The notes under the pieces were generated by a model. It did no database searches. It was not told where the DNA came from and saw nothing but the letters and a program-made list of their open reading frames with translations. From Rhizaria sp. SCN 62-66 (taxonomy: Eukaryota): 64,000 nucleotides of DNA. Made by a program: the position numbers and the translations under genes. Every line of letters begins with the position of its first letter. Position 1 is the stretch's first letter. Shown here piece after piece: positions 1 through 64,000 of this stretch. Where the stretch lies: contig MEDY01000066.1 of NCBI GenBank assembly GCA_001724265.1, positions 1-64,000 of the forward strand, read 5' to 3'.

Positions 1-86
<86 letters not shown>

Positions 87-87
87 C
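1..87 (+). repeat. (AAC)29 microsatellite encoding poly-Asn, truncated by window start
   Basis: Perfect AAC repeat at bases 1-87, in the frame of the first gene. Confidence 0.95.
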
Positions 88-971: not shown

Positions 972-1002
<31 letters not shown>

Positions 1003-26120: not shown

Positions 26121-26639
26121 GCTGAAGACACGAAGACGCAACGCAAAGCAAAGCAACGCGACGCAAAGCAGACCGGGGGAGAGTGGCAGCGGCGAGAGAG
26201 AGAGGAAGTGGGGGGGTGAGGGCGGATTGGCAATGGTGGGGTTTGGGAGTAACGGTGTTTGGGAAGAGGGTGTGTGGTGGGAGAGCATGCGCAAGCGAAG
26301 CGGATACAGAACGCAATGTATGTGCCACATAACGTTCAAGGATATAATGTGGGCTTGAGAGACAAAAGCGAAGCTTTAGGATGCGGTTTCAACGTTGCAA
26401 AGAGTCGAAGGCGGGGAGAAAGGGCTGACGAGGGGCGAGGCAAAAGTAGCACATTCTGGAGGTATAGCTTACCTCAGAACGGCACCGTGACGCAACACCT
26501 GCATAATACTTCTCATGAACAGTCTGTGCAAGGAATATCATGTCCTGAATACAGCCTTAGTACGCGCAAAATTGCCTGCTTTTCTGATATCTGGGCGCGT
26601 GTGTGTGGCAGGCTTCCATCACCCATCCACTTGCAGCCT

Positions 26640-42735: not shown

Positions 42736-45700
42736 TTAGTCATCAAAGTCGCTGAAGCTGCCGCTGCTAAAGCTCCCCGTGGCAAACCCGGTAACGTAGT
42801 CGTCGTCATCGTCGTCGACAGGCGTGCGCCACTCGCCGCCCACCCATTCGCGGTCGCCGGCCTCCGCCTCATTGGCCGCGCCCACGGCCGCACTCGCATG
42901 CGAACTCGCATTCACGGGCGCAGCGGCAGAGGCGGCGTCCACAGCGGTACGGCCGGCATCGGCAGTGACAGCAGCGTTGTTGCTGCTCAGGACAGCAGAG
43001 GCAGAGTCAACGGTGGCAGAAGTGAGTGAGCTTGCCACATTGCCGCCGCCGCTGAAGCCCTTGGCGGCGGCAGCGGTGGCGGCGTCGATGGCGCTTGAGG
43101 CAGCAGCCCCGGCGGCGACGGCGCCGGCAACGGCGCCAAGGCCAGGGACAGCAGCCGCAGCAGCAGCGGCGGGGGCGGGGGCAGCGACAACGGCAATAGG
43201 CGCAGCGGCGGCAGAGGCAGAGGCGAGTGTGACCGGCGCCGCGACGGCCGCCACGTAAGCCAGGCGTGCAAACAGCCCGCTGCCGACACCGCTGCCGCCG
43301 CCGCTGCTGACGTTGCCCCGGACCGCGGCGGTGGTGGAGTTGACTGCGCCGCTGACTGTGCCGAGTGCGTCAGCCAACATGTCCCGCAGACGCTTGTCGC
43401 CGAAACGGCCGTGCACGTAGCTAGTCGGGGCAGTCGCATGAGCATTGACATTCGCACTCGAGCTGGCGTTGTTGTTCCTCGATTGTTGTTGCTGCAGCTG
43501 TTGCTGAGAAACAAAGTTAGCACCCGCATTAGCGTTGTTGTTGCTGTTGTTGTCGAGAGAATTATTGATGTTGTTGATGTACGTGTTCAACGCGGGGTAG
43601 TCGCGTCTAAGGGCACTTACACGGGTAAGTACCTCTTTAGACGCCGGCAGCACCTTGCCCATGACACTGCTCACCGTGTCGTCCATCGACTTGCGCGCGT
43701 GAGTCATCGCTGCTGTATTATTGCGCACAGTCGCGCTCACGGTTGCGCTCACGGTCTCGGCCAGGGCTTTGGCGGCGGCGGTCACCGCGGTGGCGCCAAC
43801 GGTGGGGCTACCGGCAGCGGGATGGCCGTGCTGACTCTGGCTCTGAATCTGGCTCTGGCTCTGGTGAGCAGGGCTTGAGTGACTGTGGCCAGCAAAGTGA
43901 CCGTGAGCAGAGTGACCGTGAGCGTGGTGATTGAGCACATGGACAGAATGGCCAGGCGCAACATTGTGACTATGACCGTGATTATTACTCGCGTGCACAC
44001 TATTGTTCACGTTTGCAGCAACCATGGCGGGAATCGCCGTCGCCACCGCGTCCTCCCCCTTAGCCATCGCAGCCACGGCCTTGCCCTTTGCGTACAGCAC
44101 CCAGGTCCGGATCTTGGGCGGGCACGTCGCGGGGTAGCTACCCATATTCCCCGGGGCACTTAGACTGTGAGGGGCGTTCATGCTCGCACCAGCAGCTGCC
44201 GCAGCCGTGCCGTTATCAGGAGCGCTAACGCTGGCAGCGTTGCCGTGGGTGGCGTGGGTGACTGTGACCGCGTGAGAGGACAGCAAGCGCTCGGTAGCAG
44301 CGGCAACGGCGTCTGTGTCAACAGGATCGGCACGCGCAGTCGCAGAAGCAGCAGCGACAACAGAGGCGGCGCCGGCACGACTGCTATCGAAAACAGCAGC
44401 AGGAGCAGTGGTAGCCGACTGATGCTCCGTGTTGATGTAGCCGCAAGCACTGTTGCTCTCAGCGGTGGCAACGCCACTGTTTTGACTCACGACGACATCG
44501 CTGTTGCGCAGCACAAACGCATCGGTCACGCTTGCGCTCTCGTGGGCACTCCCATTCGCGCTGTCAGAGTGACCGTGGGCGTAGGCGTGGGCGTGGGCGC
44601 ACGCACCGTTGCCATGACTTGTGTTGTAGCCGGTGCCACTAACGACAGCCTTCGCAGCCTGTGTGGCTTGCACAGCGGCAGCACCAGCAGCACCAGAAGC
44701 AGCACCAGCAGCAGCAGCTGTCGTGGTGTTGTTGCGGGGACGGCGCCGCACGGCCGAGGCCGCCGTGAAGGCCAGCTTGGCTGTGGCAGCCGCAGCCGCC
44801 TTGGCGCGCGAGATCGGGCAGCACAGTGCGCCTGCGGCGGCGGCGGCGGCGCTGCGGCGGCGGGCCACCACGGCCGCCGCGGCGGAGGCGGCGGAGGCAG
44901 CGAAAGTGGCGTCACTGTAGCCAGCGCCAGAGCTAGACGTCGCAGAGTCAGATCTGAGAGACGCGTAAGTGGGGGGAAGTAAGGGGGTCGCGTTGCACAT
45001 GCCCGTGGCGTGGTAAGTGCAGTCGGGACTTACATTCGCGCCTGTGGGGTTATTGTAGTGACTGCTCGCATTCTTGGTGCGAGTGCAGCCGTTGTTGTTA
45101 TTGTTGCTGTTGTTGTTGTTGTTGTGACTCGTGTAGTGGTGGCGGTACTTGTCCTGGCCCCGGTCGAAGAAGGCGCCGATCGAGCCCCGGTGGCGGCTGT
45201 AGAAGGCGGCAAACGCGGCCGGCAGCGCGGCCCGGGCCTTGCTGCGGAGCTTGCTCAGCACGTGGGCAGATAGCGACAGCGACGCGTAGGGGTCGGCATC
45301 CGCGGCGGCGGCGACGGGAGAGTGACCGTGGGCAGCAGAGTGACTGTGGGCAGCAGTGACGACGGGGTGACTGTGGGTGATCGGGTGACTGTGAGACACC
45401 GCAGCAAGAGCAACATCACTCTGACTCTGACTCTGAATCTGACTGTGAGCGGACGAGTCAGTCTCATAAGCTGCTGCTGCAACAACAGCAGGAGCGCTCG
45501 GAGTATCAGCCGGAGCTTGCCGGGTGATACTCACACAGTCACTGTGGTGCCCAGTGCTCAGCTCGCTGCTCACGGTCACTTGTGCAGTGCTGTTGACAGA
45601 CTCGGGCGCACTCACAGCGACCGTGGGCAGAGCAGCGACCGTGGGCACAGTCGCGGTGACCGTGGGCAGGTGAGATGTGACTGTGGGCAGCACAGCAGCG

Positions 45701-47370
45701 TTGGTATTCCCGACACCAGCATCACTGACAACCGTGTTACCAGTGCTAGTCTCTGTGCCGCTGCCATTGCTGTCCGTATTGATGATGTTTTTGTTGATGT
45801 TATTGATCTCACTTGGTTGACTCTGGCTGTTGTAGCAGCCGCAGCGCTCCTTATCACACTTGCCGCCACTACGAGCCTGAGCCGGAGACTGCGACTGAGA
45901 CTGGCTCTGGCTCTGTGCTTGAGGCTGCGACTGGGACTGGGACTGCTGTCCATTCGCACCCGCACCCGCGATATTACTGTTACTGCCCGCGTTGCTGCTC
46001 TTAGCGAGCGCACTGGTGGGCGGCAGCGGCGACAGCAGACAGTACCCGCGCGGCCGCTCAGTAAGCTTGTCGTGCGGCAGCATCGCGGCCCACAGCCGCG
46101 GCACACTCACCCAGAACGAGGGGTACTTAAAGCGCGCCACGTCTAGCACAAGCACCGAGTCAGAGGCGGCGTGGTAGCCCGCCAGTGGTGACATATGGCC
46201 GTCGCCGGTCTGCCCCAGCGCCTTGCGCGAGAAGGACACGACGAGGGCCGCCTTGAGCCCGCCACGGGCAGGGTTACCGTGCGGCGCCGAGGCGAACGCA
46301 GGGTTGATCACGGCCGGGTTCGAGGCGACCTGGTGCAGCAGCGCGCGGAAGTGGTCGATCGAGGTCAGGTCGGCGCGGAAGTCCTGCGCAAGGACCCCGT
46401 GGCAGCGCGAGAGGGAGGAGAACTGGCGGAATGTCATCCCCTCGTCCCGGATCACCGACATCGGCGTGCAGCACTCGAGCATTTCCTCGGAGAACCAACG
46501 CCACGGCAGCTTCCAGTTGCGACCAGGGTCGACGCCGAGCGCGTTGAGACACATGGTGAGCGTCGTGATGGCGCAGTAAGCGGGCTCGGCCTGCGTGGTG
46601 AACTGCTCTGCGAGCGGGAAGTAGCACTCCATGGTGCCGTCTGCAAGCGCCTCGGTAAAGAGCCGCCGGCCCTGTGGTGAGTTGAACGGGATCAGGTCCG
46701 CGGGCAGGTCGCGGCGGTAGAAGGACCAGTCAGCGGGCGGCTGCCATTGCGGGCTTGCGGCCAGCCCGCAGCCGCTGGCAGTCACCGGCGTCGCCGTCCC
46801 GCCCGCGCACGCGCGCGCAAGGTGCGACGAGACGGCGCGGGGCGCGCGCGGCGTGCTCGCGCGCGTGGGGGACGCAAGAACGCCAGGACTGGTGCTAGAG
46901 CTGACGCTGTGTGAGCTGACGCTGACGAGGGGCACGGAGGGCATAGAAGCAGAGGCCGAAGACGCCTGGGCAGGTGATGCGGGCGAAACTGTCGTCGTGG
47001 CTGAGACTGGGGGGGCTGCTGAGGCAGTCGCAGAGGAAACGGAAACAATCGCTGACGGGGATTCAGTTGTTGTTGCTGTTGTGAGATTGGTATTGGAGCT
47101 GTTACTGGGAGCTGATGAGCAAAACGCAGCACAGGGGGCGCTCGCCACCGCGGCCGTTGCGAGGTTCGTGTTGTTGTGCGCACTGTTGATACTTCCACTG
47201 TGCAGAGAGCGGAGGCGCAGCGCGACCTGTGCCGCATGCTGGAGCTGTTGCAGCTGCTGCAACTGCTGCTGGTGCTCCATTGCGAGCTCCCTCAGCAGCT
47301 GCTGCGTGTGGGGCGCCGAGGCGGCCGTGTTTAAGACTCGGGAGGCAGATCGGTGACAACGTGCCAGCAT
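42736..47370 (-). CDS. PCS: Phytochelatin synthase (papain-like), 1544 aa with long low-complexity His-rich tail
   Basis: SFYRR.LP, FTTQAEPAYC (catalytic Cys), LNALGVDPGR.WK.PWRWFSEEML.CC, LGQTGDGHMSPL (His) and VLVLDVARFKYP.FWV (Asp), domain at about 46050-46730. Single ORF, stop TAA. Confidence 0.92.
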   Translation of the reverse strand: MLARCHRSASRVLNTAASAPHTQQLLRELAMEHQQQLQQLQQLQHAAQVALRLRSLHSGSINSAHNNTNLATAAVASAPCAAFCSSAPSNSSNTNLTTATTTESPSAIVSVSSATASAAPPVSATTTVSPASPAQASSASASMPSVPLVSVSSHSVSSSTSPGVLASPTRASTPRAPRAVSSHLARACAGGTATPVTASGCGLAASPQWQPPADWSFYRRDLPADLIPFNSPQGRRLFTEALADGTMECYFPLAEQFTTQAEPAYCAITTLTMCLNALGVDPGRNWKLPWRWFSEEMLECCTPMSVIRDEGMTFRQFSSLSRCHGVLAQDFRADLTSIDHFRALLHQVASNPAVINPAFASAPHGNPARGGLKAALVVSFSRKALGQTGDGHMSPLAGYHAASDSVLVLDVARFKYPSFWVSVPRLWAAMLPHDKLTERPRGYCLLSPLPPTSALAKSSNAGSNSNIAGAGANGQQSQSQSQPQAQSQSQSQSQSPAQARSGGKCDKERCGCYNSQSQPSEINNINKNIINTDSNGSGTETSTGNTVVSDAGVGNTNAAVLPTVTSHLPTVTATVPTVAALPTVAVSAPESVNSTAQVTVSSELSTGHHSDCVSITRQAPADTPSAPAVVAAAAYETDSSAHSQIQSQSQSDVALAAVSHSHPITHSHPVVTAAHSHSAAHGHSPVAAAADADPYASLSLSAHVLSKLRSKARAALPAAFAAFYSRHRGSIGAFFDRGQDKYRHHYTSHNNNNNSNNNNNGCTRTKNASSHYNNPTGANVSPDCTYHATGMCNATPLLPPTYASLRSDSATSSSGAGYSDATFAASAASAAAAVVARRRSAAAAAAGALCCPISRAKAAAAATAKLAFTAASAVRRRPRNNTTTAAAAGAASGAAGAAAVQATQAAKAVVSGTGYNTSHGNGACAHAHAYAHGHSDSANGSAHESASVTDAFVLRNSDVVVSQNSGVATAESNSACGYINTEHQSATTAPAAVFDSSRAGAASVVAAASATARADPVDTDAVAAATERLLSSHAVTVTHATHGNAASVSAPDNGTAAAAAGASMNAPHSLSAPGNMGSYPATCPPKIRTWVLYAKGKAVAAMAKGEDAVATAIPAMVAANVNNSVHASNNHGHSHNVAPGHSVHVLNHHAHGHSAHGHFAGHSHSSPAHQSQSQIQSQSQHGHPAAGSPTVGATAVTAAAKALAETVSATVSATVRNNTAAMTHARKSMDDTVSSVMGKVLPASKEVLTRVSALRRDYPALNTYINNINNSLDNNSNNNANAGANFVSQQQLQQQQSRNNNASSSANVNAHATAPTSYVHGRFGDKRLRDMLADALGTVSGAVNSTTAAVRGNVSSGGGSGVGSGLFARLAYVAAVAAPVTLASASAAAAPIAVVAAPAPAAAAAAAVPGLGAVAGAVAAGAAASSAIDAATAAAAKGFSGGGNVASSLTSATVDSASAVLSSNNAAVTADAGRTAVDAASAAAPVNASSHASAAVGAANEAEAGDREWVGGEWRTPVDDDDDDYVTGFATGSFSSGSFSDFDD

Positions 47371-48176
47371 TATCTGCGCGAAATAGACGTCAAGAAAAGA
47401 AAAAGTGGGGAAATTGGGGGTTAGGGGGGACGTAAGAGGGCAAGCGGGTGGGAGAGCAAAGTCCGAGGAGGGCCTAACGGAGTCTCGCGAAGAGACCTTG
47501 AAACCACAGGCGGACAGACAATTTGTTCCTCTATACTTGTATTATAAAGGATAAACGCGTGACTCATTAGGTTTAATTCGGGATCGCAAACTAAATCGCT
47601 ATTCTGCGAACGGAAGTCCACTTCTAGCCCGATTTTTGAAACGCGTCGGACTCTGGCAGACCGGCGTGGAACCAGCCACGGCCGACACAGCGCTCCACAC
47701 GAAACCGCTATTTCAAGATATAGCAAGAAAGTGATCAGTCATGACAGCGTAACGAGCGGGAATGTTGAGAAAATACAAATTCTTATCTTTATAGCATACA
47801 CTGAACTAATTCTCCGATTATCTTTGTGTTTGTTTTCGGACGCCGAGATTACACGTCCCTCGTCCTGCTCAGCAACACGCGGACACGATACACTGCAAAC
47901 CAGCATGCGACTGCGACTCAGAGCGCCAGCTGTTGCGCTAGCCCTCACAACCAGCAGCCGCGTGGTAGGTGTGCGTGGCGTGCCATGCTGTTGTTGTGTT
48001 GTCGCTTTAGCTCGTCATATAACAGCTAGTATCAGCGTCAAATCGAGTCATTCGTCCAATCTCTCAGTTCGCCAGGACGGATGGTTATATAAGCTCCGGC
48101 AGTCACATTTCACTCGCGCTCCTGAATCAACGCACAAAAACGCGTTATATATGTCGTGAATCAAACAAAACGCGCT

Positions 48177-48707
48177 TTACGCAGCCTTCTTGGAGAGCTC
48201 AGCAAGCTCGCGGACGTTCTTGTCCGCCTCCTGAAAAACACGCAGAGACACACAAAACGCGGAATAAAAGGCACAAGATGTGAGTGCATAAAAATTAAAC
48301 CAAAGCGATAATATACAAAGCAGAGTATGGTATAATGACAGTAAAATTAATATCTCTTAGAGAGCATTAAGGTGCTCAAATGTTGCATTTAGTATGCGTA
48401 CCTGGAAGCGCTTCTGGTGGACCTCGACGGCCTTCTCGAGCTTGGCCATCTCGGCCGTGTTGGTCTCGATGATGCCCTTGATCTCGGAGCGAATCTCCGG
48501 CAGCGAGTCCTGCAGAAAGAGGCGGCCGACAGAGCGGTACACCGTGGCCTCCTCGGGGAGGTCCTGGAGGTCGGCCAGAGTGAGCTCGGAGCGGCGCTTG
48601 ATCGTCGTCGCCTGCATGAACTGGTTCTTGGTCAGGAAGAGCGTGCGCTCGGAGGCCTGGCGCAGCTGGAAGGCCTTCATCAGCTCCTCGTTCGTCACGG
48701 CGGACAT
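48177..48707 (-). CDS. PFDN1: Prefoldin subunit 1 (beta-type)
   Basis: Exons 48707-48402 and 48230-48177. ELMKAF, RRSELT..L.DLPEEATVYRSVGRLF and EADKNVREL. Stop TAA. Confidence 0.85.
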
Positions 48708-49139
48708 GAGCGGCGGCGGGGTCTAAGGGACGGGGCGGCGGGTTGCGAGCAGGACAGGGAGGAAGAGAGGGCGTGTGTGAGAGATTGGGCCGTTGTACTA
48801 GGGGCACATGGGAAAGGATCAGGAATAGTACGAAAACAAAATGGACAATGCGGATAATATGAAAAGAGTCTATGCATATCCATCATCTGGTTATTTTGCT
48901 TATCAACGGTCGCTTTGGAGCACCAGAGCATGCGCCAGTTTGAATAACTGCTCGGCAAACTCAAGCCGCCAGTCAAGCTGGCTCGCGTTCGATCGTGCGG
49001 CCAGTCGGTTGACCGAGACACCGAGTCACCACTAACGGACCGAAGGCGGATCTGGGACTGACCAGGGATTCTTGATGTGTGCATTTGGCCTTGATAAGTC
49101 CATTTTTTCGCTCTGTTTCTTTGATAATCGCGTGCAAGG

Positions 49140-52100
49140 ATGATTCGTCGCATTGGTTTTAGTGTTAGCAAAGGCGCGCGTTGTGTTTCTGCGGCGACTG
49201 CGAACGTGGGGCAAATGACCTCGTCGATGGCCGCATCATCCGCCGCCCTCGCCGCGCCCGCCGCTATGGCCGCGGGCAGTCTTGTGTGCAACCGTGCTTC
49301 TTGCAATGTTGCGGTGCAGGGCGGTCGCAGCTATGCGTCACTCGCTTCCCGTGCCAATGTGCCTCTGTTTGCTGCCTCTGCGACGGTGACGTCTCTTCGC
49401 AGCAACAAGGTGCATATCAAGAGTACAGCGAATGCTCTCACGAGTGTGACGAAGCAGCCCTTTAGCACGTCTCTGTTTAGTCTGGCTTCCCTGCTCAACA
49501 ATAGTGTGAGCATTAGCAATAACAGTAGCAGCGCCAGCAACGTTGTTGCTCGTGCGTATGTATGTTTCTCCTCCCCTACATCACTCGCGTTCTCTCATTC
49601 CTCTCTGTCGTTGTCTGTCTCTTCTCTTTCTCTCCTTCTCTCTCGTTGCTCTTTCACTGTCGCAATCTGAAATATATACTAATATCTTAACAAAGTCTCA
49701 CTTAAGCCCAAAATTCCCTCGTTTTCCCCCTCGCTTCTCTCCACCGCCCTTGTCGTCGTCCTCCTCGCTCTCTCGCTCCACTACCTTCTTCCCTCTCTTA
49801 CCGACAACAACGCAACCGTTCTCTTCACCACTGCGAACGCCACCGTCACCGCTACACAACCCTCACTTACGCCGCAATTACTGCTGCAACATCGACAGAT
49901 GTCTACCGACGCTGCTACCGCTGCCGCCGCCGAGCCCGTCCCCGTCTCCGTGGCGCCCTTCCGCGAGTGGCTGCTCTCCACGCTGCCCGCCACGGCCACG
50001 GCCGCGCTCTCGGCCGAGCGCCGCGCGGCGCTGCTGGACGCGGCCGTGACGCCGCTGCCCGAGCTCTACGACGCCTGCCTGGCGCTGCAGGGGAGCGAAT
50101 CCGCGGTTGCGACAGCGCCCAACGCGCTGCGGTGGGACGTGCCCGCCGATGTGATGGAGTCGCTCGGCGCCAACATCATCGCCGCCAACAAGGCCACTCT
50201 CGACAAGGTACGCGTCAGTTGGGATCAATGCAAGCGCAGCAGTACTGTGCCTCATTGGGAACTACAATCGTTTCGTATTTGGTGCCCAGGATTGATGTAT
50301 AAGCGTGTTTAGTTTTAATACCACTAGAATTATTGTGCGTTTTGTCTATAATTACTTAAATTATTGTGCTAAACGCACATACTCACACTCTACATCCCTT
50401 TTTCTTGACTTGTCACTTCCCCTCCCTAGATCGCCGCGCTGCCCGCCGGCTCCCACACCTTCGCCAACACTCTCGGTGCCATCGCGGACGTGGACCGCCG
50501 CACGCAGGCGCTGTCGTCCTCGCTCTCCTTCATCGCTGAGGTCTCGACCGAGAAGGCCGCTCGCGACGCCGCCAACGCCGCCCAAGAGGCTATCCAGGCC
50601 TACGGCGTCGACGCGTCGGCGCGCGTGGACGTCTATGCCTCGGTGGCCGCCTTCAGCAAGACTGCGGAGGCGGCCGCGCTGACCGGCGAGCACAAGCGTC
50701 TGCTGGAGCACACGATGCGCGACTACATTCGCGACGGCATGGCGCTCAACGACGCGGACCGCGAGAAGCTGGTCGAGATCAAGAAGCGCATGTCGTCGAT
50801 CGCCATCAACTTCCACAAGAACGTCGCTGAGGAGGACACCAAGTTCGTCTTCACGCGCGCGCAGCTCAAGGGGCTGAGCGAAGCGCAGCTGGGCAACCTC
50901 AAGAAGGCCACTGCGGAGGATGAGGCCGTCGCCATCAACACCAAGGACAGCAAGGCTACCGAGGCCAGTCCCGAGACTGCTGCCGAGGACAAGTTCGTGG
51001 TGACTCTCAAGACGCCCGACTACATCCCTGTGATGGAGTACTGCAGCGTGATTGCCACGCGCGCCGCGCTGGAGAAGGCCTACAACTCGCGCTGCATCGC
51101 GGCCAACACGCCCATCATCGAGGAGCTCGTGTCCCTCCGCGCCAAGCAGGCCAAGCTGCTGGGCTTCGAGAACCACGCGGCGTACATTCTCGACGTGCGC
51201 ATGGCCAAGACGCCCGCGGCCGTGGGGACCTTCCTGACCTCGCTCAACACCAAGCTGGGCCCGTTGTACGCCAAGGAGCAGGCTGCCCTGCTCGCGCTTA
51301 AGCAGGAAGAGGTCCAGAAGGGCCTGTCCGCCGCCGAGGACGACGTTAAGGCCAACTTCGCGGCCGCTGACGTCAGCAAGCTGAACCCGTTCGACCGCGC
51401 GTACTACTCGCGCATCTACGAGGAGCGCGAGTTTAACGTCGACCACGAGAAGCTCAAGGAGTTTTTCCCGCTCGAGCACGTCACGCAGGCCATGTTCGGC
51501 ATCTACGAACGCATCTTTTCGATTAAAATCGTCAAGTCCTCCGCCCCCACCTGGCATGAGTCCGTGTCCTTCTACAAGGTCTTCGAGGCCGCGGCCGACG
51601 CGCCCGCGGGCGAGCAGGGCAAGGAGCTGGGCCAGTTCTACATGGACCTGCACCCGCGCCAGGGCAAGTACTCGCACGCCGCCGTCTTCACGCTCCTCTG
51701 CCCCTGCGAGCTTGCCGACGGGTACGTGTCTTAGAATATGGATATATCTCAACCAAATATTTATCGAACTGCTTAATTCTTAGACATAATATTTAAAATG
51801 TGTATAATATTCCGCATGTTTATTTTTTTGTGAAGACTCTCACATATCCGTATTTTTCATTATTTTTGTTTCTCTTCTGCTCCTTTAGCTCCCGCGCCCT
51901 CCCCGCGGCCGGCCTGGTGTGCAACTTCCCCGCCGCGACGGCCGACACGCCCGCGCTGCTGCCGCACAAGGACGTGGTGACGTACCTGCACGAGTTCGGC
52001 CACGCCATCCACCTGCTGCTGGGCAAGCCGAAGCTGCAGCGCTTCGAGGGACTCAACATTGAGCGCGACGCCGTCGAGGCGCCCTCGCAGCTGCTCGAGA

Positions 52101-52774
52101 ACTGGGCCTATAACGCCGACTCGCTGGCGCTGCTTCAGAAGCACTACCAGGACGCCGAGCGCAAGCTGCCGCAGAGCGACGTCGAGGCGCTGATCAAGTC
52201 CGAGATCGCGCTGGCGGGCGCCTTCAACAAGCGTCAGCTCGTCTTCGGTATGCTGGACCAGCGCATGCACACGCGCGATGAGGTCAACACGGCCGACCTT
52301 TACCGCGAGGTCATGCTCGAGGTCATGGGCTTTGAGCCCACGCCCGGCACTAACATGGTCGCGTCCTTCGGCCACCTCGCCGGCGGCTACGATGCGCAGT
52401 ACTACGGCTACCTCTGGTCCGAGGTCTACGCCGCTGACATGTTCCACTCGCGGTACGTCTTTCAGTGAATGTATTCGTACTTATGTGCATAACGACCCCA
52501 CTGTCTGCTTCATACTACATGCTTAAATTTTTATTCGTTTTGCCAACGACTATGTTCTCAACTCTCACTTTATTGCTTTGCTTTTTGTTGCTTTTGTATT
52601 TTTCACTCTCATCACAGCTTCGCTAAGGAGGGCGTGCTGAACCCCTCTGTGGGCCTTGCATACCGCCGTAAGATCCTCGAGAAGGGCTGCACTGAGGACG
52701 CCGCTGTGCTGCTCAAGGACTTCCTCGGCCGCGAGCCCAGCGACGACGCGTTCCTCAAGTCCAAGGGCCTCTAA
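49140..52774 (+). CDS. M3-family metallo-oligopeptidase (thimet oligopeptidase/neurolysin/Prd1-like) with N-terminal presequence exon
   Basis: Exons 49140-49559, 49899-50207, 50430-51721, 51889-52452, 52618-52774. Motifs VTLKTPDY.P, AKLLGF.NHA, YMDLHPRQGKYSHAA, zinc motif HEFGH, DAVEAPSQLLENW, FGHLAGGYDAQYYGYLWSEV and FLGREP. Stop TAA. First exon is less certain. Confidence 0.93.
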
Positions 52775-53336
52775 GCGAGATCTAAGTAACGTGTACTTCG
52801 TTGTCGTACAACCTGTGCGGATGGTGGATTGATGGTAACTATGCGTTGTTGACTAGTGCAGTCTTGAGGTTTTTTATGTTTAATCAAGGAAAATACGATG
52901 TTTATAATCAGAAATGCAATACAAAAGCAAATACAAAAGCAAACAATGTCTACCTTGCATTATCGAGATGTAGTCCTGTTGCGTAACTGATGTGCGTGTT
53001 TACGTTTGTCTTTGTATTCGCGTCGCTTTTTGTGCGATCACTTGTTTGCTACATTAAATACTGATTATAATATCGTTATTCTTCCACACTAATACGTCCC
53101 AGAACAAAAACAAGAACAAAGGTGAACGAATAGGAACTTGATCTTGTTTGCCGCTCTTGATAATGTGCGTTGGAATTAATATGATTACTTTTTTCTCTCT
53201 AAATAAACCAAAAACGTGTTGTTTCTCCGTTTTTTCACTGCGTCAAACGCAAGTACAACACTTGCGCCCTGTACCAGTGTAAGCATCACTGTTATTATGC
53301 GATATGTTACGTTAGACGTTAGTCTTAATGGCGTGC

Positions 53337-54615
53337 TTACTTCTTGTTCTTCTTCTTATTGTACTTGTCGTAGACGTTCTCGAACATGTTCTCGTCGTAC
53401 GAAGGGTCGCGCGCGCGCGCCGCACCGGCCTAAACAAAGAGTGAAAGAACGCACAAAGTAGCGAAGACAAGATAGAAAGGTGAGAAAATGATCATATGTT
53501 GACGAATTGATTACATACGTCGTAAAGGTGTCATAGGTAAATAGAAATAAGACAATATGACAATAAAAACACGATATATGCTGCAGTCATTAGCGTAAAC
53601 ACATACCTGGCGCTTGATGCGCTCCTGGAACTGCTCGTAGGTCTCGTCCTCGGGGATGTTCTCGGCCTTAGCGGCCTCTGCCTCGGCCTCGCCCTCCTCG
53701 CTGGCGCGGCGCTCTGCCTCGCGGGACTCGCGCAACGGCGCATCCTTAAGCGGGAAAAACTCCTTGTCCCACACGAAGTCGGTGGCGAGCCCGACATCGG
53801 CGAAGAAGGTCTTGAGCTGGCCCGCGACCAGGTCCTTGCACTTGCCGCCCGGCACGTGGAGGTGCAGCTGGACGAGGCGGAAGTGGCCCGGGGTAGCCGT
53901 GCGGAGGTAGAAGCGCAGCTTCTCGTTCTGGATCGTGGGGAAGGACGCCGAGGTGGAGTCCTTGAGGGCGGAGAGGAAGCCCTGCAGCATCGACAGCGAG
54001 GCCTCATTCGTCTCCTTCTGCTCGGGGTAGTTCGTCAGCAGATCCGGGTGCACCTTGGTGGCCAGAGAGCGCAGCACGGCGCTCAGCAGCGGCACCTTGG
54101 CCGCGGCCTCCTTCACCGCGGGGGCCTTGGACGCCGTCACGCGGCCCTGAAGAGAGCAACAATCAAAGCAACAGAAGAGAAGAAAGGTGGGAGAGATGGA
54201 TGTAAGAGCATTAAGAAAGCTGCCGTAAACTTAGTTAGTTGCCGTTGTTGCTGCGCAGACAGGATGAAACGACACGTACCTGGCTAGTGCCAACGCGCTG
54301 GAAGCCCTTGCTGTTGGTAGTAGCAGCAGCGGCGGCAGCGGGCTTAGCAGCAGCAGCAGCAACAGCAGCGGCAACAGGGGCAGCCTTAGCAGCGGCGGCG
54401 GGCTTGGCGGCGGCGGGCTTGGCGGCGGCGGCGGCAGACGAGAAGAGGCGGCCAGCGGGGACGACGGCGACGGGCTTGGCGGCAAGAAGCGTGCTGAAGC
54501 GCTGCTGCTGGGAGAACGAAGCAGAGACAGCAGGAGCAGAGATCGCGAAGGCAGCGGTGGCGCTGGTGAGAGCGGTGGCGCCGCGCGAGGCAGCGCGGAG
54601 GAAACGGAGGGACAT
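53337..54615 (-). CDS. Mitochondrial DUF4460 (TCAIM N-terminal-like) protein
   Basis: Exons 54615-54280, 54146-53607, 53429-53337. Arg/Ala/Ser-rich presequence MSLRFLRAASR, then LR..ATKVHPDL...P.QKETNE.SL..L..L.FY pattern. Stop TAA. Confidence 0.75.
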
Positions 54616-54984
54616 CGGGGCGGAAAAGGGCGAAAAGTCTGCAAGAGGGGAGACTCCGAGTGTCCTGAGACGGCGAACGGCGGACGCGCAAATGGTGGAG
54701 CAGGAGATAGTCAAGGGTAGGTGAGGGGCGAGCAAGGCGAGGCGGGCAGAAGTGGAGGATAGAGAGAGCGAGACTGGGCAACGAGCGCGTGCATGAGCGA
54801 AGGAAGACAGCAATTTGATGATCAAAAAACTTAATTTATAAGAATACTGGTACATTTACTAAGTGGATATCCTGGCGATTCCACTGTTGACGTGCGTATA
54901 CTCGCGAGCGAGCGTATCGAATCGGAAGCAACCCGCAGCGCTGCCGCCGGTCGAAGACGGCCGCGCAGTTGGCGTCTCGGTTGG

Positions 54985-54997
54985 GTTCGCAAAAATC
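54985..54997 (+). promoter_or_regulatory. Candidate promoter motif GTTCGCAAAAATC
   Basis: Lies in the divergent spacer between the DUF4460 and coiled-coil genes. Confidence 0.4.
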
Positions 54998-55403
54998 ATC
55001 GCTGACTGTCGGACTGCGACTTCTGCAGCCTGTTCTTTTTAGGTCTGCAGTGACACAGTTTCACCGTCTTTTGGTCTATAATAGTCCGTACTACATTAAA
55101 CGGTGGCGCATATGAGTGTCCTTTTTAGAAACTGCTTGTTTCAAGCGGTATACCTTTCGCTCTGGCATCCCCCGCGATGCTCCTTGGCCTTGTCCTCCTC
55201 TCACTCCTCTCAACTCTCCGCCTCTGCCCACTATTTGTCCGTCCACGCGCTAACTATGTAGCTACTCGCCTCTTAACTACGCACGTGCTTTTCCACTGAT
55301 AAGCTACAGCTCTTCTCTTACTCCCTACACCTCCACAACAGACCTAAACAACAACAACACCACCTCCTTTGACATCAACATCAACAGCAACGTCGGCGCC
55401 AAC

Positions 55404-57354
55404 ATGAACTCGAACGCGTCTGACGCTGCCATCAGCAGCAGTAGCAGCAGCCTCTCTGCCCCCGCTGCCTCTGCCTCTGCTGACTCAGTGTCCTCGGCCG
55501 TGCGCCGCCTGGAGGCCCGCATCGCGAACTTGGCCTCCGCGCTACACTCCGCGCAGCAGGAGCTGTCGGAGCGCACTGTCGCGCTACACAACGCGTCCAC
55601 GGCGCTGGCGGCGCTGCAGGCGCGCGCGGACGTGTCCCGCGGCGAGGCCGACGCGGCTGTGGCGCGCTACCACGACTGCGACGCGCGGCTCCAGGCCTGC
55701 CGGCTCAGATGCAACGCGCTCGAGAGGGACATCCTGACGCTCAAGGCCACGCACGCGGCTGAGGTCGAGGCCTTCGCGCTCGCCGCCAAGGTTGCCGACG
55801 GGCTCGTGCTTGACGCGTCCGCCGCCAGGGACGCGGCGCAGGAGGACGCCGCCACCGTGCGCAGGGCCGCCGCGGCCCGCGAAATGGAGCTGCAGGTACG
55901 TGCAGTTGGCACTAAAGATCAACGCATGGAGCTGGAAAACCTATATATTATTTCGTCGTGTATCTTCTGTATGTTTGTCCTTTTATCAACGTCATTTTAT
56001 GTCTCACTTTTCTTTTTCTGTTTTACTCTGGCTTTTGCTTTCCTTGTCCGTGCAGGCCGCGCACGACTCAGCCTTGCGCATGATGTCTGCGCAGCACGAC
56101 GCGATCCGCGCGCAGCTCGAGCTGCAGTTTGCCTCCGACCTGCGCGTCCTCAAGTCCGCCGCGCGCACGCAGGCCGAACCTGCGCAGCGCGAGCGCGCCA
56201 CGCGCACTGCGCACCGCAACGCTGCCAGTGCCAAGAGCGACCTGTGCGCGGCGCGCGACGCGGCCGACGCGCTCCAGCACGAGGTGCTGCTGCTCAAAGA
56301 GGAGAACGCGCGGCTGCGGCTCGCGGCGACCGAGGCGGGCGTGCGCGCGGGCGCGGGCGCTGAGTCGAGCGCGGCGGCGGCCAGCGCGGCGCAGCAAGTG
56401 CAGGCGCTGGCGGCCGAGAACGAGGCGCTGCGCGGTCGCTTCCGGCAGCTCGCTCTCGTGAGCAAGGGCGAGGTCGAGCGGCTGCGGGCGCTTGCGCAGC
56501 ACCTGACCGAGCTGGCGGTTAAGGCCGGGGTCGAGCCGGGGCAGCTCATGCCGGCGCACCTGGCGCCCGCCAACGCCAGCGCTGCCGCGAATCCTGCGGC
56601 TGCGAACAGCGCGAATGTGAGCACTCCTCACAACGGGAGTGCCAGCGCCGTGGGTGCGGGCGCGAGTGCGAGTATGGCAACTGGGAGCAAGAGCGCAATC
56701 GTGCCCCCGACGCCGTACGTGGGCATCACGTCGCCGCAGACGTCGCGCCCGCGCCCCGGCTACGCTGCCTCTGCCACTGCTGCCGCTGCGAGTCATAACA
56801 GCGGTGCATACATTGCGGGGAGCTCAAACAGCAGCAGCGGTGTCGGTCAGCTGACAAAGCCGAGCCGCACTGGCCAGTACTATGCCGGTAACGGTAACGG
56901 TTATAACAACAGCAACGACTACGAGGACGACTACGGCGACGACGACAACTACAGTGGTGACGCGTCCAACTACAACAACGGAACTCATGCATATGGGTAC
57001 GCTGCGGGCGTGCATGGTGCGGCGCCGCAGGGGGCGCTCAATGTTGGCGACACTTTACACCGCGCCGCCCTCAGTCAACAGCAGCCTCAGCCGGCCGCCC
57101 ATGGTCACTCGGCTCAGCAGCAGCAGAGGCGTCTGTCGTCTACTGGCACTGGCGCTGGCGCTGGGTTCAAGGCGAAGGCGGCTGGCAGCGGCAGCGGCAG
57201 CCGCGTTAGCTCCCCGCTGATGAGTGCGCGCGAGCGCGCGCGCGCGGTGGTCGACGCCAAGCAAAAGGCCGGGCTCAGTAACTCAGGCACTTATAGTGGC
57301 GGCAGCAGTGGTGGTAACAGTCGGCCGGCAACCTCGCGGCTCCCCGCTTACTGA
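55404..57354 (+). CDS. Hypothetical coiled-coil protein with disordered C-terminus
   Basis: Exons 55404-55895 and 56056-57354 join in phase 0 across a GTACG...CAG intron. Heptad-like Ala/Leu/Glu/Arg region. Stop TGA. The true start may lie further upstream. Confidence 0.75.
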
Positions 57355-57624
57355 ATGACAGAACAGTGGTGATAAGAGTAATGAACAAGATCTACATGGA
57401 TGTGTTTTCTTAAAGAACTTAACAAAACATTTTACTTTTACAATGGAAGTGAAGCTGATACTTTGATGTTGCTAATCGTTGGAGTGAAGATTAATATTAT
57501 GCTATGAAATGGTCAGAATAACATTATAAATCCACATAATACAGTGAGACTAGACGAGATAATAACTAATGTAACTGTATTGTCCTGTCATTACTGACAG
57601 CATTATTGATAAACGTTTTATGAC

Positions 57625-60600
57625 TTAGACCAACGCAAGCGCGTCAGTCATCATTTGTTTGTGCCACACGACGAGCTTGGCGTACTCTTCGCTGAGAATG
57701 CGGGCCTTGACCTCGACCTTGCTCAAACCGCGGTACTCATGGGCGTTGCAGCCGCTACTATTCACACTCGCGTTGAGACTTGTGTTAACGCTTGGCTGCG
57801 ACTGTGGCGGCTGCTGCAGCAGAGCGCGTAACTCCCACATCTTGCGCACATCTCGGGGCAGCTTCGACACGACCTTTTGGTGGAACTTTGCCAGAGTCGA
57901 GTACTCCTGAGTCAGTACCGACAGCTGCGTCTGCGCGTGCGCGTCCCGAGCGTCCCGGTCGCTCGCGTCAACGGCACTCGTACTGGCACTCGCGCTGACG
58001 CTCTGGACAGGAACACTTGCGACCGAGGGGCTTGCATCAGAGCTGGAGTAAGCAGAAACTGCGGCAACATCCGGCTTAGTGCAAGGGGCAACAAATGCGA
58101 CATGAGTAGGGTTAATCGCGAAAGTTACAGGCTCTGCTTGAGCAGCAGCGGTGGCCACAGGGCCTGCAACTGCACGCGCCGCGATCGCAGTCGCAGTGCT
58201 GACTGTAGGCTCAACACCCACACTGCGAGTGACCGTGGGCACAGTGACCGTGGGCATTATAGGCACTGCGCTATTGTGAGTGACCGTGGGCGCCCTGGGC
58301 CGCGGGGTTATCGCGACAATCGGGGAGGTCTGCAAGTTGCTGTACGAGCACAGCTGTACGCTCGTCTTGGCGCTGTCGACGACATTGCTGGCGACACAGG
58401 GAGTGCTGTGCACGCTCACATCGCGGCTCGTCGCGGTCGTGTTGCGAGTGCTGCTTGACTGGCTAGTGAGAGCCGCGTTGGCGCTGCTGCTGCTGTTGTT
58501 GCTGCCGATCGAGCGGACTGGTGTCTGCAAGCACTGATTGTCGGCCTTGGTGTTGTTTTCAGTGTTGTTGCATGCAGATGTGTTCGTGTTCGTGCCAGTC
58601 GTGTTACTGTGGCTGGTGCTCGAGCAAGAACTGGCGCCGCTGTGCGTAGCATGAATATGTGCGTTATTGTAAGTGCCCTGCACGGTCAGCGTGACGCCGC
58701 CATCAGCCGTCGTGACCACTGAGGGCCTGCCGTCGCGGTGCAAGGGCACCGTGAACACCTGAGTGCCAGGAGGAGCACTTACATTCTGAGCAGTTACACT
58801 CTGACCACTCACGTATGAAGCGCTGACAGCAACGCCGGGAGCGCTGACACTGTGGCAAGGGACATGAGCGCTGGCGCTGCTGCCGCCACGGGTGATCGTG
58901 ATCTGCGTGGTCATCGGCTGTTGTTGCTGCAGTTGTTGCTGACGCTGCTGTTGCTGCAACAAAAGCTGTTGCTGCTGTTGTTGTTGTTGTTGTCGTTGTT
59001 GTTGAAGCTGTTGCATCTTGTGGTTGTGATAAATGCTGGTATTGTTGTTGTTGTTAATGTCCCTGATGCAAGGCTTGCTACCGGCGTTGCAAGCGACACT
59101 CACACTTGCGCGACTGGGTACACGGGCATTGATGCTCGCACCAACAGACCTGCTCGCACTCGCATGCACGCCCACACTCGTCCGCGCATGGCCGCCAGCA
59201 ACGCCAGCATTCGCACCCTGCATCGTGACACTGGGCTTGCCAACCGTGTTCGCCTTGGTGTACGCAGCTGCAGCCGGATGAGAAAAGGCTCCAACTTGAA
59301 GCCGCACATTGGCAAGCAAGTTTTTGAGCCCTGTTGCGTCAGCGTTTTTAACCGCAACAGTCGCCTTTCGCGCGCTCTCTGCCGCGGCCCCCGCCTCGGC
59401 CATAGTAGCGCGCATGGCGCCCTGCTGCACCGACTGGACCCAGTCCCAGAGCAACACGGAGCCGGCGGCCGGGTCCGCCGCCAGAGCCGCCGCGAGGGTC
59501 GCCGGCAGCGCGGGCAGGGCGGGGGGCAGCGGGGTGTCAGGCGCGGCTGCGAGCGCGGCAGCAAGCGCAACGGGGGGCGCAGCAGCGGGCGCGGCGGGAG
59601 GCGCGGGGGAGGCAGGGACGGGCAGGGCGGGGGGCAGAGTGGGCGGGGCGACTGAGGGCTGAGACTGGATCGGGGGCACGGGCACAGCGGCAGAGAGCTA
59701 GGGCTGAGGCTGATACCGAGGCTGGGACTGCAGCTCAGGCTCAGCCTGAGGCTCCGACTAAGATTGGGGCCGATGGGAGCAACAGCACTGCGACTGCGAG
59801 TGCTTGTTGCAACTCATGTTCGTCGCCTTGGGCACAGAAACAGACACGTGCATTGACACCGGCTTACACACACTTGCGAGGTCGCTGTCACTGTTTTCAG
59901 TGCCACAGTCACCCTTACACGCGCGCCCCTTAGAGGCCGCCGCAGCCGTCGCCGCGGCAAGCGTCGCCTTGTTCGCCGCCGCGGCCGCAGCCTCCGCCGC
60001 CGCCGCGGCCTGGCCCGCGGCCCGCTGCGTTGCTGAGGTCACGGCTGCAGTGGCGGCGCGGGCCGCGCTCGCAGCGGCGGCCACCACGGCGGCCTTCTTG
60101 CTACTGGTGCTGTGACTAAGGGGGTACTTAGACAAGTCGCCGCAAGGGCGACCGTGGGAAAAGTCAGGAAACCAGTCAGCGGTGGGGGCGCCATGCGCGG
60201 CCGCCAGCGCCAGAGCGGCGGGGCCAGTGAGCTTCGCACCCACAGGCACTGCGGTCGGCACAGCTGCAGCATGCGCACCCACACCCGTGAGGCCACTGGA
60301 AGCGTGCGTGTTGTGGGCGCAGTGTGAGTTGGCGTGCAGCAGCGCGTCGTTGTACTCGTCGTCGTAGTGGTCGTTGGCGTCGTCTTGCTCCTGCTGCTGC
60401 AGCTGCTCGCAGTCGCCCAGGGGCAGGTCCTCGGGCAATAATACGGCGGCGGGGAATCGGGGGCGCAGTGCAGGCGAGTGGCGGCTCCACTTCTGTTGAT
60501 GCTCGTGGCGGCCTGACTTGTCGTAATGACGACTTGACTTTAGTTCGTATTGATTATTGCCGTGGTAAGTGTTGGCGCAGTGACTGAGCCTAGTCGGGTG

Positions 60601-63046
60601 AGGATGAGTGTTCATATTCGTGTTGGTGGCGTTTGCATCAAGACCATACTTCGTATACAGAGAGACACGTGTTGCATTGTTGCTATCGACGTTATCAGAA
60701 ACTCTGATGTCGACGGCAACACGCTCATCAGCGCCGGAAATGTTATACTCATTGTTGCTATTGTCATAACTGCGGCCATTATTGTTCATGTTAATGTTGC
60801 CGTCAACGACATACGCAGCGTCAGTCGCATAGTGACCCTGCGCAGCAGCAGCAGCAGCGGCACCGGCACCAGCAGAGTAAACGAAATGACTGTGAGCATT
60901 GTCGAGCTCGCCGTTCATCACATGGTCCTGGTGCTCCAGGTCTTGTGCCCTCACATATCCAGTAACAGCAGCAGATGCAGCAAAGTGACCGTGGGCGTCG
61001 CCACCATCATTGTAGCAGTGACCGTGGGCAGAAAGGGAGTGACCGTGAGCAGCAAAACGACTAGGACCGTGAGCATAGTCGTTGTCACGCTCACAGTCAT
61101 TGTTATCATCGTAGTCATAATCACCCTCGTCTTCGCAGTCAGCGTCATCATAATGACCGTGTGCATCGGCGTATTGACCATGGGCAGCCTCGTAGAGTTG
61201 TTGTTGCTGCAGTGCTGCCTTAGTAGCATCATACTCTTGTTGTTGCTGCTGCAGCGACGTCCTAACGTCGTCTGCCTTGTACGCAGCGCGCTTCGCAGCA
61301 GCCTTGGCCTTGGCAGCCGCGGCCGCGGTCGCTGAGGCACTCTGGGCGCGCACTTTGTCGACAATGACGCCGGCGCCGGTCACGGCTGAGCGCGCCTTGA
61401 GCCCCGCTGCAGCTGTGATGTGGGCAGCGGTTGCAGGAAGTTTCTTCGCGTTGCCGTAGCTGCAGTTAGCGTGGTTAGCAGTGTTGTTGGCTGAGCGGCG
61501 ACTGTGACGCTGCTGGTAATGACTGTGGGCGGCGTTGAAGTGACTGTGGGTCGGGTTGAAGTGGCCGTGGGCAGGATTGAAACGACTCTGAGCCAAAGCG
61601 GCATGCTAAACACTAGTGGCACTGCCCATAGCAATCTTACTCGCGTTTGATCCCTTTTTGCTCATGTGACCCTTCGCACTGTATGGGTGTGAGTTTTCAT
61701 CATACCCAGCCTCGTTTGCGCCGCCATGAGCGCTATTGTCGTCGCTGTCGCTCGTGCTAACGCTGTCGCTGGCGGCGGTGAGGCTGTGGTTCATTTTGTT
61801 GCTGTAGTAGTAATCGTACTCGTTGTTGTTGTCAGAGTCTGTCGCCTCCAGCAGCGAGTCAGAACGATCGTCGCGAGAGTCAAACTGACTGTGAACGTCA
61901 GAGTGACTGTGAGAAGCAGAGTCAGCGTGACTGTGAGCATCGGAGTGACCGAGAGCAGCAGAGTGACCGGGAGCAGCAGCGACGTCGGAGTCGGTGTGAC
62001 TGTTGTTGTTTGTGTTATTCAACTCACTCCAGTCACTCAGCTCGCAGTCGCTTGAAATCTTTTGAATTTGCTGCTGCTTCTGCTGCTGTTGCTGCTGGTG
62101 TTGCTATTTCTGCTGCTTCTTCTGTTGCCTCAGCCGCTGTTTCTGCTCGCGCGCCGCCTTCGCCGCCTTGGCGTTGTCGTCCTGCTGCTGCTGCAGCCGC
62201 GCGTCCTCGGCCCAGCGCGCTGAGGCGAGCATGTACCTTGTCAGCGATTCCTCTATCTCGTCGGCGACGTTAGCTGCAGCGGCCGCAGCAATTGCAGTCG
62301 GAGCAGTCGCTGTCGAAGGCGTGTCGGGAGAGCCTGCAAGTGCACTGGCTGCGCTGTTGTGAGTGAAGCCGTTTGTGTTGGGAGGAGCCCAGCGGCGCTG
62401 TAGCGTTGACAACGACTGCAGCAGTGAGTGGCTGTCGTTATCGTCGTTGTCAGCACTGGTTCTAGCAGTCGCATTATCAACCACAGGTGTGGCAAAAACT
62501 GAGACAGGAGCAGTTGCGTTTATAGCACTAGGCGCAGGAGCAACTATGTTGCGACTACTGACGCCAGCGTTTCCATTAACGCTGCTATTGCTGCTACGAA
62601 TGTTGGCAGTGACGCTCGCGAGTAGCAAGTCGGTCTTGACGTCCTCCGCAGTGCTGCCGTCCGTGAGCGTGGCCAGCGCGGCGTCTTCCGCGACGACGGA
62701 CTCCAGGTAAGACCGCAAGCGCGTCTGCGCCCAGCTCGTGTACTCGTCCATCGGCGCAGCAGGGGTGGTGTCTGCCGTAGCGGCGGGCTCAGCGTCGGAG
62801 GTAAATGTGGAGGAGGCTGGCAGCGTGGTCGGATCAGCTATGGGGACCTCGCTGAGCCAACGAACAGGAAAGAAAAAAGACGTGAATAGGGACACAGATA
62901 AGCCACAGTCAAAAGAAAACACGCGGATATGAATTAAAATCGATTAACACATAGACGTACGTGTCAACACCTGCGATAGAGCAGATCATAATCTTTGTCG
63001 CGGGACTATTGTCCTTCCAGCGGACGCTCATGGTGCTCGTGTCCAT
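57625..63046 (-). CDS. Large hypothetical low-complexity protein (about 1770 aa) containing four in-frame TAG codons
   Basis: Exon 63046-62961, GTACG...CAG intron, exon 62851-57625. ORFs 62104..62922, 61606..62022, 59758..61596 and 57625..59685 are all one frame, separated only by TAG at 62104, 61606, 59758 and 59698. Terminal TAA. Confidence 0.78.
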
Positions 63047-63709
63047 GGTGCTTTCCGGCGAACCGCGCTTGGAGACCTATACGTTTAAGACAGAAACTAT
63101 GATTTAAATATAGTATATAAACGTATTAGTTAAATAACTTTACTCAACCAATTTTCAACTTAACGAACAAACCACATCAAAATAGAACTTATTTGAGAGC
63201 TACTTCTTCTAGCCGTTGGAGCATCAACCGCAGTGGATCGATTGGTCAATTAGTCACCCAATCAGGCATTTGTTGTAACTCAGTGTAATGACCGCCAACA
63301 TTCACGAAATGAAACAAACGTGCACTATAATACCCCAAATCATCATGTAATCATCGTGAATCATGATCTGGCGGACAACTAACTCATCTCGACGCTTATA
63401 CAGTTGGTTTAAAAACTTTGTTTATTTGTTTATTTGTTTATTTCTTATTTTTCTTGTTCTACGCTACATAATAATAGCTTAGTAATATGATCTATGTTAC
63501 ATCCTACATATAAAGTGTTCCCCAGAATAACACCACGCGAGAAAAGAAACCTCTCACTCACATATCCCTCCTTAATCCTGCGGCAAAGCCCTCACCATTA
63601 ATCGCACACCCGACAGATCGATCGCCGCTTTATAAACTACAGCAGCAAAACCTGTTCTCCCCTCGCTTTCCCGCATCGTTAACAGTCACCAGGATCGCGT
63701 CCGAGCGCT

Positions 63710-64000
63710 TTACCAGGCGTGGCCGCCGCGGAAGCCCTGGCGCTGGTCCTGAAGCTTCTCGACGCGCTCGGAGAAAAGCTGGACCTTGTCCACGAACTGC
63801 ATCGCGAGCCGCTGCGCGCGGCTGACCGCGGGCGCAGTCACACGCAGGCACTTGCCCACGGTCGCCGCGGCCGCCGCGGCGGGGTCCTCCCACGCGGCCG
63901 AGAGCAGGCCCGCGTACATGAGCTTGGAGGCGACCGAGACGACGTCGTCCTCGGACATCTCGTACTTGGCCACGAGGTCCGAGAGCGAGATGGTGGTGTA
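63710..64000 (-). CDS. 3' end of eIF3c-like PCI-domain protein (5'-partial)
   Basis: YTTISLSDL..KYEM....V.SVASKLM....L.AAW..P...RAQRLAMQF.DKV resembles the eIF3c PCI winged helix and following helix. Stop TAA. Confidence 0.7.
   Translation of the reverse strand, partial: YTTISLSDLVAKYEMSEDDVVSVASKLMYAGLLSAAWEDPAAAAAATVGKCLRVTAPAVSRAQRLAMQFVDKVQLFSERVEKLQDQRQGFRGGHAW

Follow-up and report, generated by a model that had tools for sequence, protein, structure and literature searches.

Five in-frame TAG codons in two orphan genes of a GC-rich microbial eukaryote suggest that UAG may be read as sense

Can a coding frame that is interrupted four times by one stop codon, and by no other, still be translated from end to end? 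The question is raised by the minus strand of a 64,000-nucleotide (nt) stretch of DNA (positions 1 to 64,000 of contig MEDY01000066.1, assembly GCA_001724265.1, Rhizaria sp. SCN 62-66; hereafter the window), in which one long frame, the target gene (57625–62751), contains four in-frame TAG codons. A reading made from the sequence alone had proposed that the organism translates UAG, most likely as glutamine, and that UAA and UGA remain stops. The analysis presented here supports part of that proposal. UAG is probably read as an amino acid, at least at five sites in two genes, with UAA and UGA still acting as terminators. Sense UAG is the best single explanation because the interruptions in both genes are exclusively TAG, because there are no frameshifts, and because none of the 20 modelled genes is terminated by TAG. 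A reassignment used throughout the genome is not supported by the window, since its other genes have no TAG at all in ~11,100 codons.

The target gene consists of one GC-rich exon, 1708 codons long, that runs from a first ATG at 62751 to a TAA at 57627–57625. The frame to which it belongs is somewhat longer, spanning 1772 codons (57625–62943, minus strand) and bounded by a TAA/TGA stop upstream of 62943 and by the same terminal TAA. Within this frame there are four TAG, no TAA, no TGA and no frameshift, while the other five frames of the stretch have 27–95 stops each. TAG 1 (62104–62106) lies between the residues QQKKQQK and QHQQQ, TAG 2 (61606–61608) between ATSV and HAALAQ, TAG 3 (59758–59760) between RPQS and SEPQ, and TAG 4 (59698–59700) between YQPQP and LS. 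Retranslation reproduced exactly the coordinates and contexts that had been reported for a long minus-strand exon interrupted at four sites by TAG alone, and both the frame and the local GC content agree with the accompanying claim that no in-frame TAA or TGA, frameshift or AT-rich intron is found at these points. The end coordinate given for the region, 63046, is out of phase by one base. The terminating TAA (57625–57627) is followed by a G, and GC content, at 0.57, falls to 0.31 in the 150 nt beyond it.

The encoded protein is a low-complexity orphan, rich in Q, A, S, T, N and H, with relaxed codon usage (GC content at third codon positions, GC3, of 0.66). The target matched no Pfam family, and no TAG falls in any Pfam-matched region of the window, in line with the earlier remark that none of the TAGs lies in a conserved domain. 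When the target was read through with TAG as X, the protein search returned no homologue of 974–3101 amino acids (aa). A query covering 61570–62700 matched only the window's own 215-aa open reading frame (ORF), in a cluster of size 1, and the four other ATG-started ORFs of the target were absent from the protein collection under those exact starts. The 215-aa ORF, from ATG 62751 to TAG 62104, is identical on 6 contigs from JGI/IMG, Logan and ENA. Among metagenome contigs, the C-terminus of the target found one identical contig of 3157 bp (L001), which reaches no TAG. A search of viral contigs gave nothing, and the best score of the target's C-terminus against the ESM Atlas (0.78) was uninformative.

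The fifth TAG is in a second low-complexity orphan gene, gene 1, on the plus strand. This gene runs off the start of the window and was remodelled as exon 1 (1–3056), an AT-rich intron (3057–3229, GTACTT...TGTAG) and exon 2 (3230–4469); the frame goes on into exon 2 and ends in TGA at 4467–4469, for a total of ~1430 codons. TAG 5 (1210–1212) lies between ELQQRQQ and QHTAG, where the surrounding GC content is 0.63. From this codon, 48 open codons lead to the next ATG (1357), and the 144 nt in between are open in frame with a GC content of 0.64. Another TAG at 3136–3138 was tried as a terminator and as a sixth sense codon, and was dropped because it sits in the gene 1 intron. Gene 1 also has no Pfam family, and a 951-aa read-through query found no matches among 1.84 billion representative proteins. 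All three types of stop were compared in a symmetric scan that required 60-codon stop-free flanks on both sides. Only the TAGs at 1210, 61606 and 62104 had both flanks scoring at least 0.19, and no TAA or TGA passed; the TAGs at 59758 and 59698 are too close together to qualify.

Two features of gene 1 are of separate interest. Its poly-Asn tracts (AAC/AAT runs at 1–90 and 2640–2700, plus strand) are low-GC islands within coding sequence. TAGs of the two genes also share an identical 11-nt context, AATAGCAACAC (..A TAG CAA CAC), at 1199–1218 on the plus strand and at 62098–62117 on the minus strand, which may be chance in sequence so rich in Q and H.

The claim that UAA and UGA still terminate was borne out by all 20 modelled gene ends in the window: 12 are TAA, 8 are TGA, and no modelled gene ends in TAG. 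This is a small sample, and 2 of the 20 (the M3 peptidase and PEMT genes) may be exon ends. The only high-scoring frames that end in TAG are exon ends running into introns, antisense frames, and the target itself. Other TAGs, found near where the kinesin, M3 peptidase, RPAC, VHP and prefoldin frames end, were also considered and rejected – they are intronic, part of 3' splice sites, or upstream of the start. In the modelled coding frames there is no in-frame TAA or TGA other than one TGA in the loosely bounded RPAC exon, which spans an intron.

TAG is not rare in this DNA, since it is the first in-frame stop after 4 of 12 exon–intron boundaries (gene 1, kinesin junction 3, and M3 peptidase exons a and b, with TAA at 3 and TGA at 5 of the boundaries) and the next in-frame stop in 3 of 20 3' regions. 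The difference between introns (4/12) and gene ends (0/20) gave a Fisher p of ~0.014, calculated by hand, and the binomial probability of finding no TAG among 20 ends is 0.04 at a TAG share of 15%. GC content falls from ~0.65 to ~0.41 over the 150 nt after the 20 modelled stops; after the five internal TAGs it is 0.52–0.79. The base following the modelled stops (+4) is G at 12 of the 20, a purine at 16, and C at 1. The termination context is strong, for example at the stops at 9482 (minus strand) and at 34692, 41796 and 4467 (plus strand), and often reads TAAGCG or TGAGCG.

Simple explanations of the pattern would be an error of assembly or sequencing, TAGs that lie in introns, or four to five genes that share a frame by chance. 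Sequencing runs were compared over positions 44001–64000 of the window. X1–X4 are DNA runs with this contig, of which X3 comes from a different study and X4 from a sister strain, ~0.8% divergent; X6 is polyA-RNA. Assembly error was ruled out by independent X3 contigs that carry all four TAGs. Record 8, with one difference (at 61615), has TAG 1; TAG 2 is retained in X3; and record 7, with no differences, has TAG 3 and TAG 4. The TAGs were stable over runs from several years and two studies. In X4 no difference is listed at TAG 1, yet 3 of the 21 differences of record 16 are unlisted, and TAG retention there is only likely; coverage of X4 at TAG 3 and TAG 4 was too low for use. An X6 contig (59620–60244) spans TAG 3 and TAG 4 ungapped, with 6 differences that are not itemised, but X6 may hold DNA or pre-mRNA and was not counted as evidence of expression or of unedited UAG. 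An X6 contig also spans position 51761 (plus strand), in the M3 peptidase intron, and carries the X4 variant there; this polyA metatranscriptome library therefore contains unspliced RNA or DNA of the organism.

Introns were ruled out by base composition: GC content within 75 nt on either side of the four TAGs is 0.53–0.68, versus 0.28–0.34 in introns, and no AT-rich or canonical intron is present at any TAG. A 61-nt GT..AG span between TAG 3 and TAG 4 was considered as an intron and rejected, as, by reading of the sequence, its removal would shift the frame. Separate genes were ruled out by the distance to the next ATG, which is 103, 229 and 94 codons after TAG 1, TAG 2 and TAG 4, with the frame open throughout; the 19 codons that separate TAG 3 from TAG 4 include no ATG. 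These TAG-to-ATG stretches have a GC content of 0.52–0.80, compared to 0.31–0.62 in 18 intergenic spacers (270–1945 nt). Artefact, introns and separate genes are effectively excluded. No support was found for any such trivial reading, which is very improbable, though the low-complexity sequence draws many foreign contigs in the compared runs. The TAGs are real, they are in frame in coding-like DNA, and they are outside introns.

If UAG is a sense codon, which amino acid does it encode? Three of the four contexts had been said to predict glutamine. This is clear for the poly-Q at 62104, but only 2 of 10 neighbours are Q at each of 59758 and 59698, and none at 61606. With gene 1 included, two sites (62104 and 1210) are strongly Q-rich in context and two others (59758 and 59698) weakly so, and 61606 not at all. 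The sole comparative residue at any TAG is in X4, in which a plus-strand A>T at 61608 turns TAG 2 (61606–61608) into AAG, a lysine codon; the window and X3 read TAG. Provided that UAG is sense, glutamine would be the most likely residue, with lysine and others as possibilities.

By analogy with described UAG-only lineages, UAG would be read by a cytoplasmic tRNA with the anticodon CUA, or by a very efficient near-cognate tRNA, and eRF1 would terminate inefficiently on it. UAG would have vanished from gene ends and would re-arise by mutation, mostly CAG to TAG, only under weak selection on sequence and codon choice. Re-entry limited to weakly selected sites would make UAG rare and would place it in just two fast-evolving, low-complexity genes.

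A number of observations speak against translation of UAG, and most of them fit a standard code, in which the target and gene 1 would be dispensable, fast-evolving, low-complexity genes or young pseudogenes with premature TAGs, mostly from C-to-T changes in CAG and too recent to have lost their coding look. The TAGs are confined to two genes without Pfam family or homologue, which could well be dispensable or decaying. These two have 5 TAG in 2753 codons (CAA 41, CAG 91), compared to none in the ~11,100 codons of the other window genes (CAA 43, CAG 352), a skew with a Fisher p of 0.033 when set against CAA and 0.001 when set against all glutamine codons. The other genes are strongly codon-biased (GC3 up to 0.95, versus 0.66 in the target). 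The Argonaute and phytochelatin synthase genes have long low-complexity inserts and still no TAG. Judging from the codon content of the target, 57–60% of single-step nonsense mutations give TAG, and the probability that random nonsense mutations are all TAG is ~0.11 for four of four and ~0.066 for five of five. The Q-rich contexts are equally predicted by CAG-to-TAG nonsense mutation. Between strains, the target diverges by 0.4–0.8%, like intergenic DNA (0.5–0.8%) and unlike conserved genes (0–0.25%). The 19 listed variants in the target comprise 7 synonymous and 12 nonsynonymous changes, a split that is not distinguishable from the neutral expectation of ~26:71, and the AAG of X4 is a sense codon at one of the TAG sites. 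A 2-nt deletion at 61033 (plus strand), in the HGH-repeat region of the target, is present on one minor contig each of X3 and X4 (depth 4–5 of 25–37); it may reflect either a misplaced repeat unit or an allele with a shifted frame. The window does not encode eRF1, and ARAGORN and Rfam found no tRNA gene of any kind in the 64 kb; with introns allowed and a lowered threshold, ARAGORN gave only implausible calls, with introns of 37–2483 nt, among the 28 of 40 candidates listed. Some protists with a standard code, such as Guttulinopsis vulgaris, barely use UAG as a terminator, according to Panek et al. 2017 (PMC5304391).

Decay under the standard code meets its main difficulty in the intact frame. 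A random substitution in the target yields a stop in only 2.8% of cases, and four stops therefore imply ~140 neutral substitutions, or ~2.8% divergence. Decay on that scale should have broken the frame several times and yielded TAA or TGA, yet the 1772 codons contain no frameshift, no TAA and no TGA. The sequence-only reading had used both halves of this argument. The half that concerns the type of stop is weak, given the probability of ~0.11, and the absence of frameshifts is the stronger one. Compared to X4, noncoding DNA has 17 substitutions and 4 insertions or deletions (indels; −1, +4, −7 and +3, three of them not multiples of three), versus 17–20 substitutions and not a single indel over the 2791 bp of the target's coding sequence that X4 covers (Fisher p = 0.065). 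A standard code also requires that a second gene was independently hit by TAG within the same 64 kb, gives no account of the lack of TAG at gene ends when TAG comes first in a third of the introns, and has to accommodate TAGs that persist over several years and two studies. Premature stops in coding-like sequence, near-neutral divergence between strains and orphan status are what a young unprocessed pseudogene or a nonsense polymorphism would look like; the lack of frameshifts, TAA and TGA, the uniform type of all four stops, and the same lesion in a second gene are not. We regard a standard code as unlikely, but as an explanation to be taken seriously.

A leaky or ambiguous code is an intermediate case, in which UAG would be a weak terminator that a near-cognate or low-level suppressor tRNA reads through at a useful rate, and reassignment would be incomplete. 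It would cover the rarity of TAG, its confinement to relaxed genes and the lack of TAG terminators. A pyrimidine comes after each of the five TAGs, compared to a purine after 16 of the 20 true stops, but a pyrimidine there is what the Q-run context predicts (P = 0.15); as a read-through signal it adds nothing and was dropped. The read-through motif of the tobacco mosaic virus (TMV) type is stop-CAR-YYA (UAG-CAR-YYA). The six bases after the TAGs are CAACAC, CAACAC, CATGCC, TCGGAG and CTCTCT, none of which fits CAR-YYA; two of the sites have CAA, but then CAC. Four leaky stops in series would also give a very low yield of full-length protein. A leaky code is an improbable explanation, and translation of UAG as sense is preferred.

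A more specific version of sense UAG can be offered only tentatively. The organism may have only begun a UAG-only stop-to-sense reassignment: UAG would already have disappeared from gene ends and be translated, but would be confined to weakly constrained genes because it is still costly or young. Such a change would have originated independently of those in ciliates, fornicates, sainouroids and green algae.

How does this compare to known codes? UAA and UAG nearly always change meaning together, and the available text of McGowan et al. 2024 (PMC11687900) describes only a handful of nuclear lineages in which they are decoupled. In addition to the fornicate and the rhizarian considered below, these include Phyllopharyngean ciliates (UAG as Leu or Gln, with Gln in two of them), Protocruzia tuzeti (Gln) and Scotinosphaera (Ser); in Oligohymenophorea sp. 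PL0344, UAA encodes Lys and UAG encodes Glu (PMC11687900, same text). Two of the metagenome-assembled genomes covered there have suppressor tRNA(CUA) genes, and the lineages have thousands of UAG at conserved positions (PMC11687900). No tRNA was found in the window. In our own judgement, a 101-kb contig with ~60% GC and 100–175-nt introns is not ciliate-like.

The fornicate Iotanema spirale, an anaerobic gut flagellate, reads UAG as Gln and keeps UAA and UGA as stops, with hundreds of UAG in conserved genes aligned to Gln, in the sections of Panek et al. 2017 (PMC5304391) devoted to it. UAA is its main terminator, UGA the second, and no transcript examined in those sections ends in UAG, much like the 12 TAA, 8 TGA and no TAG among 20 ends in the window. 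Unlike Iotanema as described there, the window has no TAG in the ~11,100 codons of other genes, and among its products are Erv1/Alr and a domain of mitochondrial ribosomal protein S6. The organism was taken to be mitochondrion-bearing. To our knowledge Iotanema has no mitochondrial genome, and the window is hence presumably not from Iotanema.

In the rhizarian exLh (Sainouroidea), UAG is read as Leu; Panek et al. (PMC5304391), in the part concerned with this organism, count 384 in-frame UAG at Leu positions in 71 conserved genes. Its terminators are UAA (56) and UGA (15), and UAG is least frequent in its ribosomal-protein genes, which are highly biased (PMC5304391, same part). The eRF1 of exLh has no obvious deviation in conserved motifs (PMC5304391, as far as that part goes), so that an altered eRF1 N-domain would not be decisive for UAG reassignment. 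Like exLh, the organism of the window would have changed UAG only and kept UAA and UGA, and the setting is comparable, as sainouroids are faecal-associated and the window is from wastewater or a bioreactor. Unlike in exLh, the contexts here are Q-rich rather than Leu-like, and the other genes of the window have no TAG (compared to the same part of PMC5304391).

The DNA of the window is nuclear and comes from a microbial eukaryote; it has ~60% GC and mostly long ORFs with few introns. The stretch recurs in bioreactor, wastewater and activated-sludge metagenomes of several studies, and the longest contig on record that carries it is 101 kb. The introns are AT-rich (GC 0.28–0.34), ~100–175 nt long, and set amid GC-rich exons (~0.65), with GTAYG-type 5' sites and long pyrimidine tracts followed by YAG. 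They were located at 3057–3229, 24714–24847, 29492–29640, 38190–38295 and 51724–51888, with boundaries that are approximate in all but the first.

Recognisable genes in the window encode Argonaute, phytochelatin synthase, TYW1, a LIM/SH3 protein, COPB2, a ribosomal protein S6 of mitochondrial type, and a first PEMT domain. Also present are a kinesin-14-like gene, an M3 peptidase, a prefoldin subunit, a VHP exon, a DUF4460 protein, a second PEMT domain, Erv1/Alr, and an RPAC/Rpb3-like subunit. The Argonaute (9482–15844, minus strand; 2120 aa, PAZ at 949–1040, Piwi from 1619) and the phytochelatin synthase (42736–47370, minus strand; 1544 aa, domain at 217–443) both have large low-complexity extensions and no TAG. 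The gene at 24387–26330 (minus strand) encodes an SH3 domain and four LIM domains, followed by an intron and a villin-headpiece exon, an abLIM-like architecture. The two PEMT (phospholipid methyltransferase) domains are in tandem ORFs at 20149–21654 (plus strand), probably a single gene with an intron, and more coding-like ORFs are found beyond the pair at 21721–22762.

The best foreign match to the COPB2 of the window is just 49% identical, and a search of genome contigs with COPB2 returned two bacterial WD40 loci alone, at 25–28% identity. In a quick, single-gene COPB2 tree of 42 of the 121 stored sequences, picked by name or top rank, the window is on a very long branch outside the Amorphea and Archaeplastida rows, and the tree was used for placement no further than that.

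The literature searched, supplementary files excepted, yielded no account of a GC-rich protist from wastewater that reads UAG as sense. If the reading of UAG as sense is correct, this would be a further UAG-only reassignment, of an already known kind, in a new lineage, and the unusual scarcity of UAG in it could be the sign of an early stage. Each new independent case of this kind tests whether constraints on eRF1 and tRNA truly couple UAA and UAG. A code in which UAG is gone from gene ends, yet near-absent from conserved genes, would bear on the order of events in reassignment, which is otherwise only modelled. It would be a snapshot of a codon-capture or ambiguous-intermediate phase that the described lineages, with their abundant UAG in conserved genes, are long past. 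There would also be a practical consequence. Gene callers that use the standard code split these genes, as with the 215-aa fragment to TAG 62104 that is in a public protein collection, and the proteomes of such metagenomic eukaryotes would therefore be mis-annotated.

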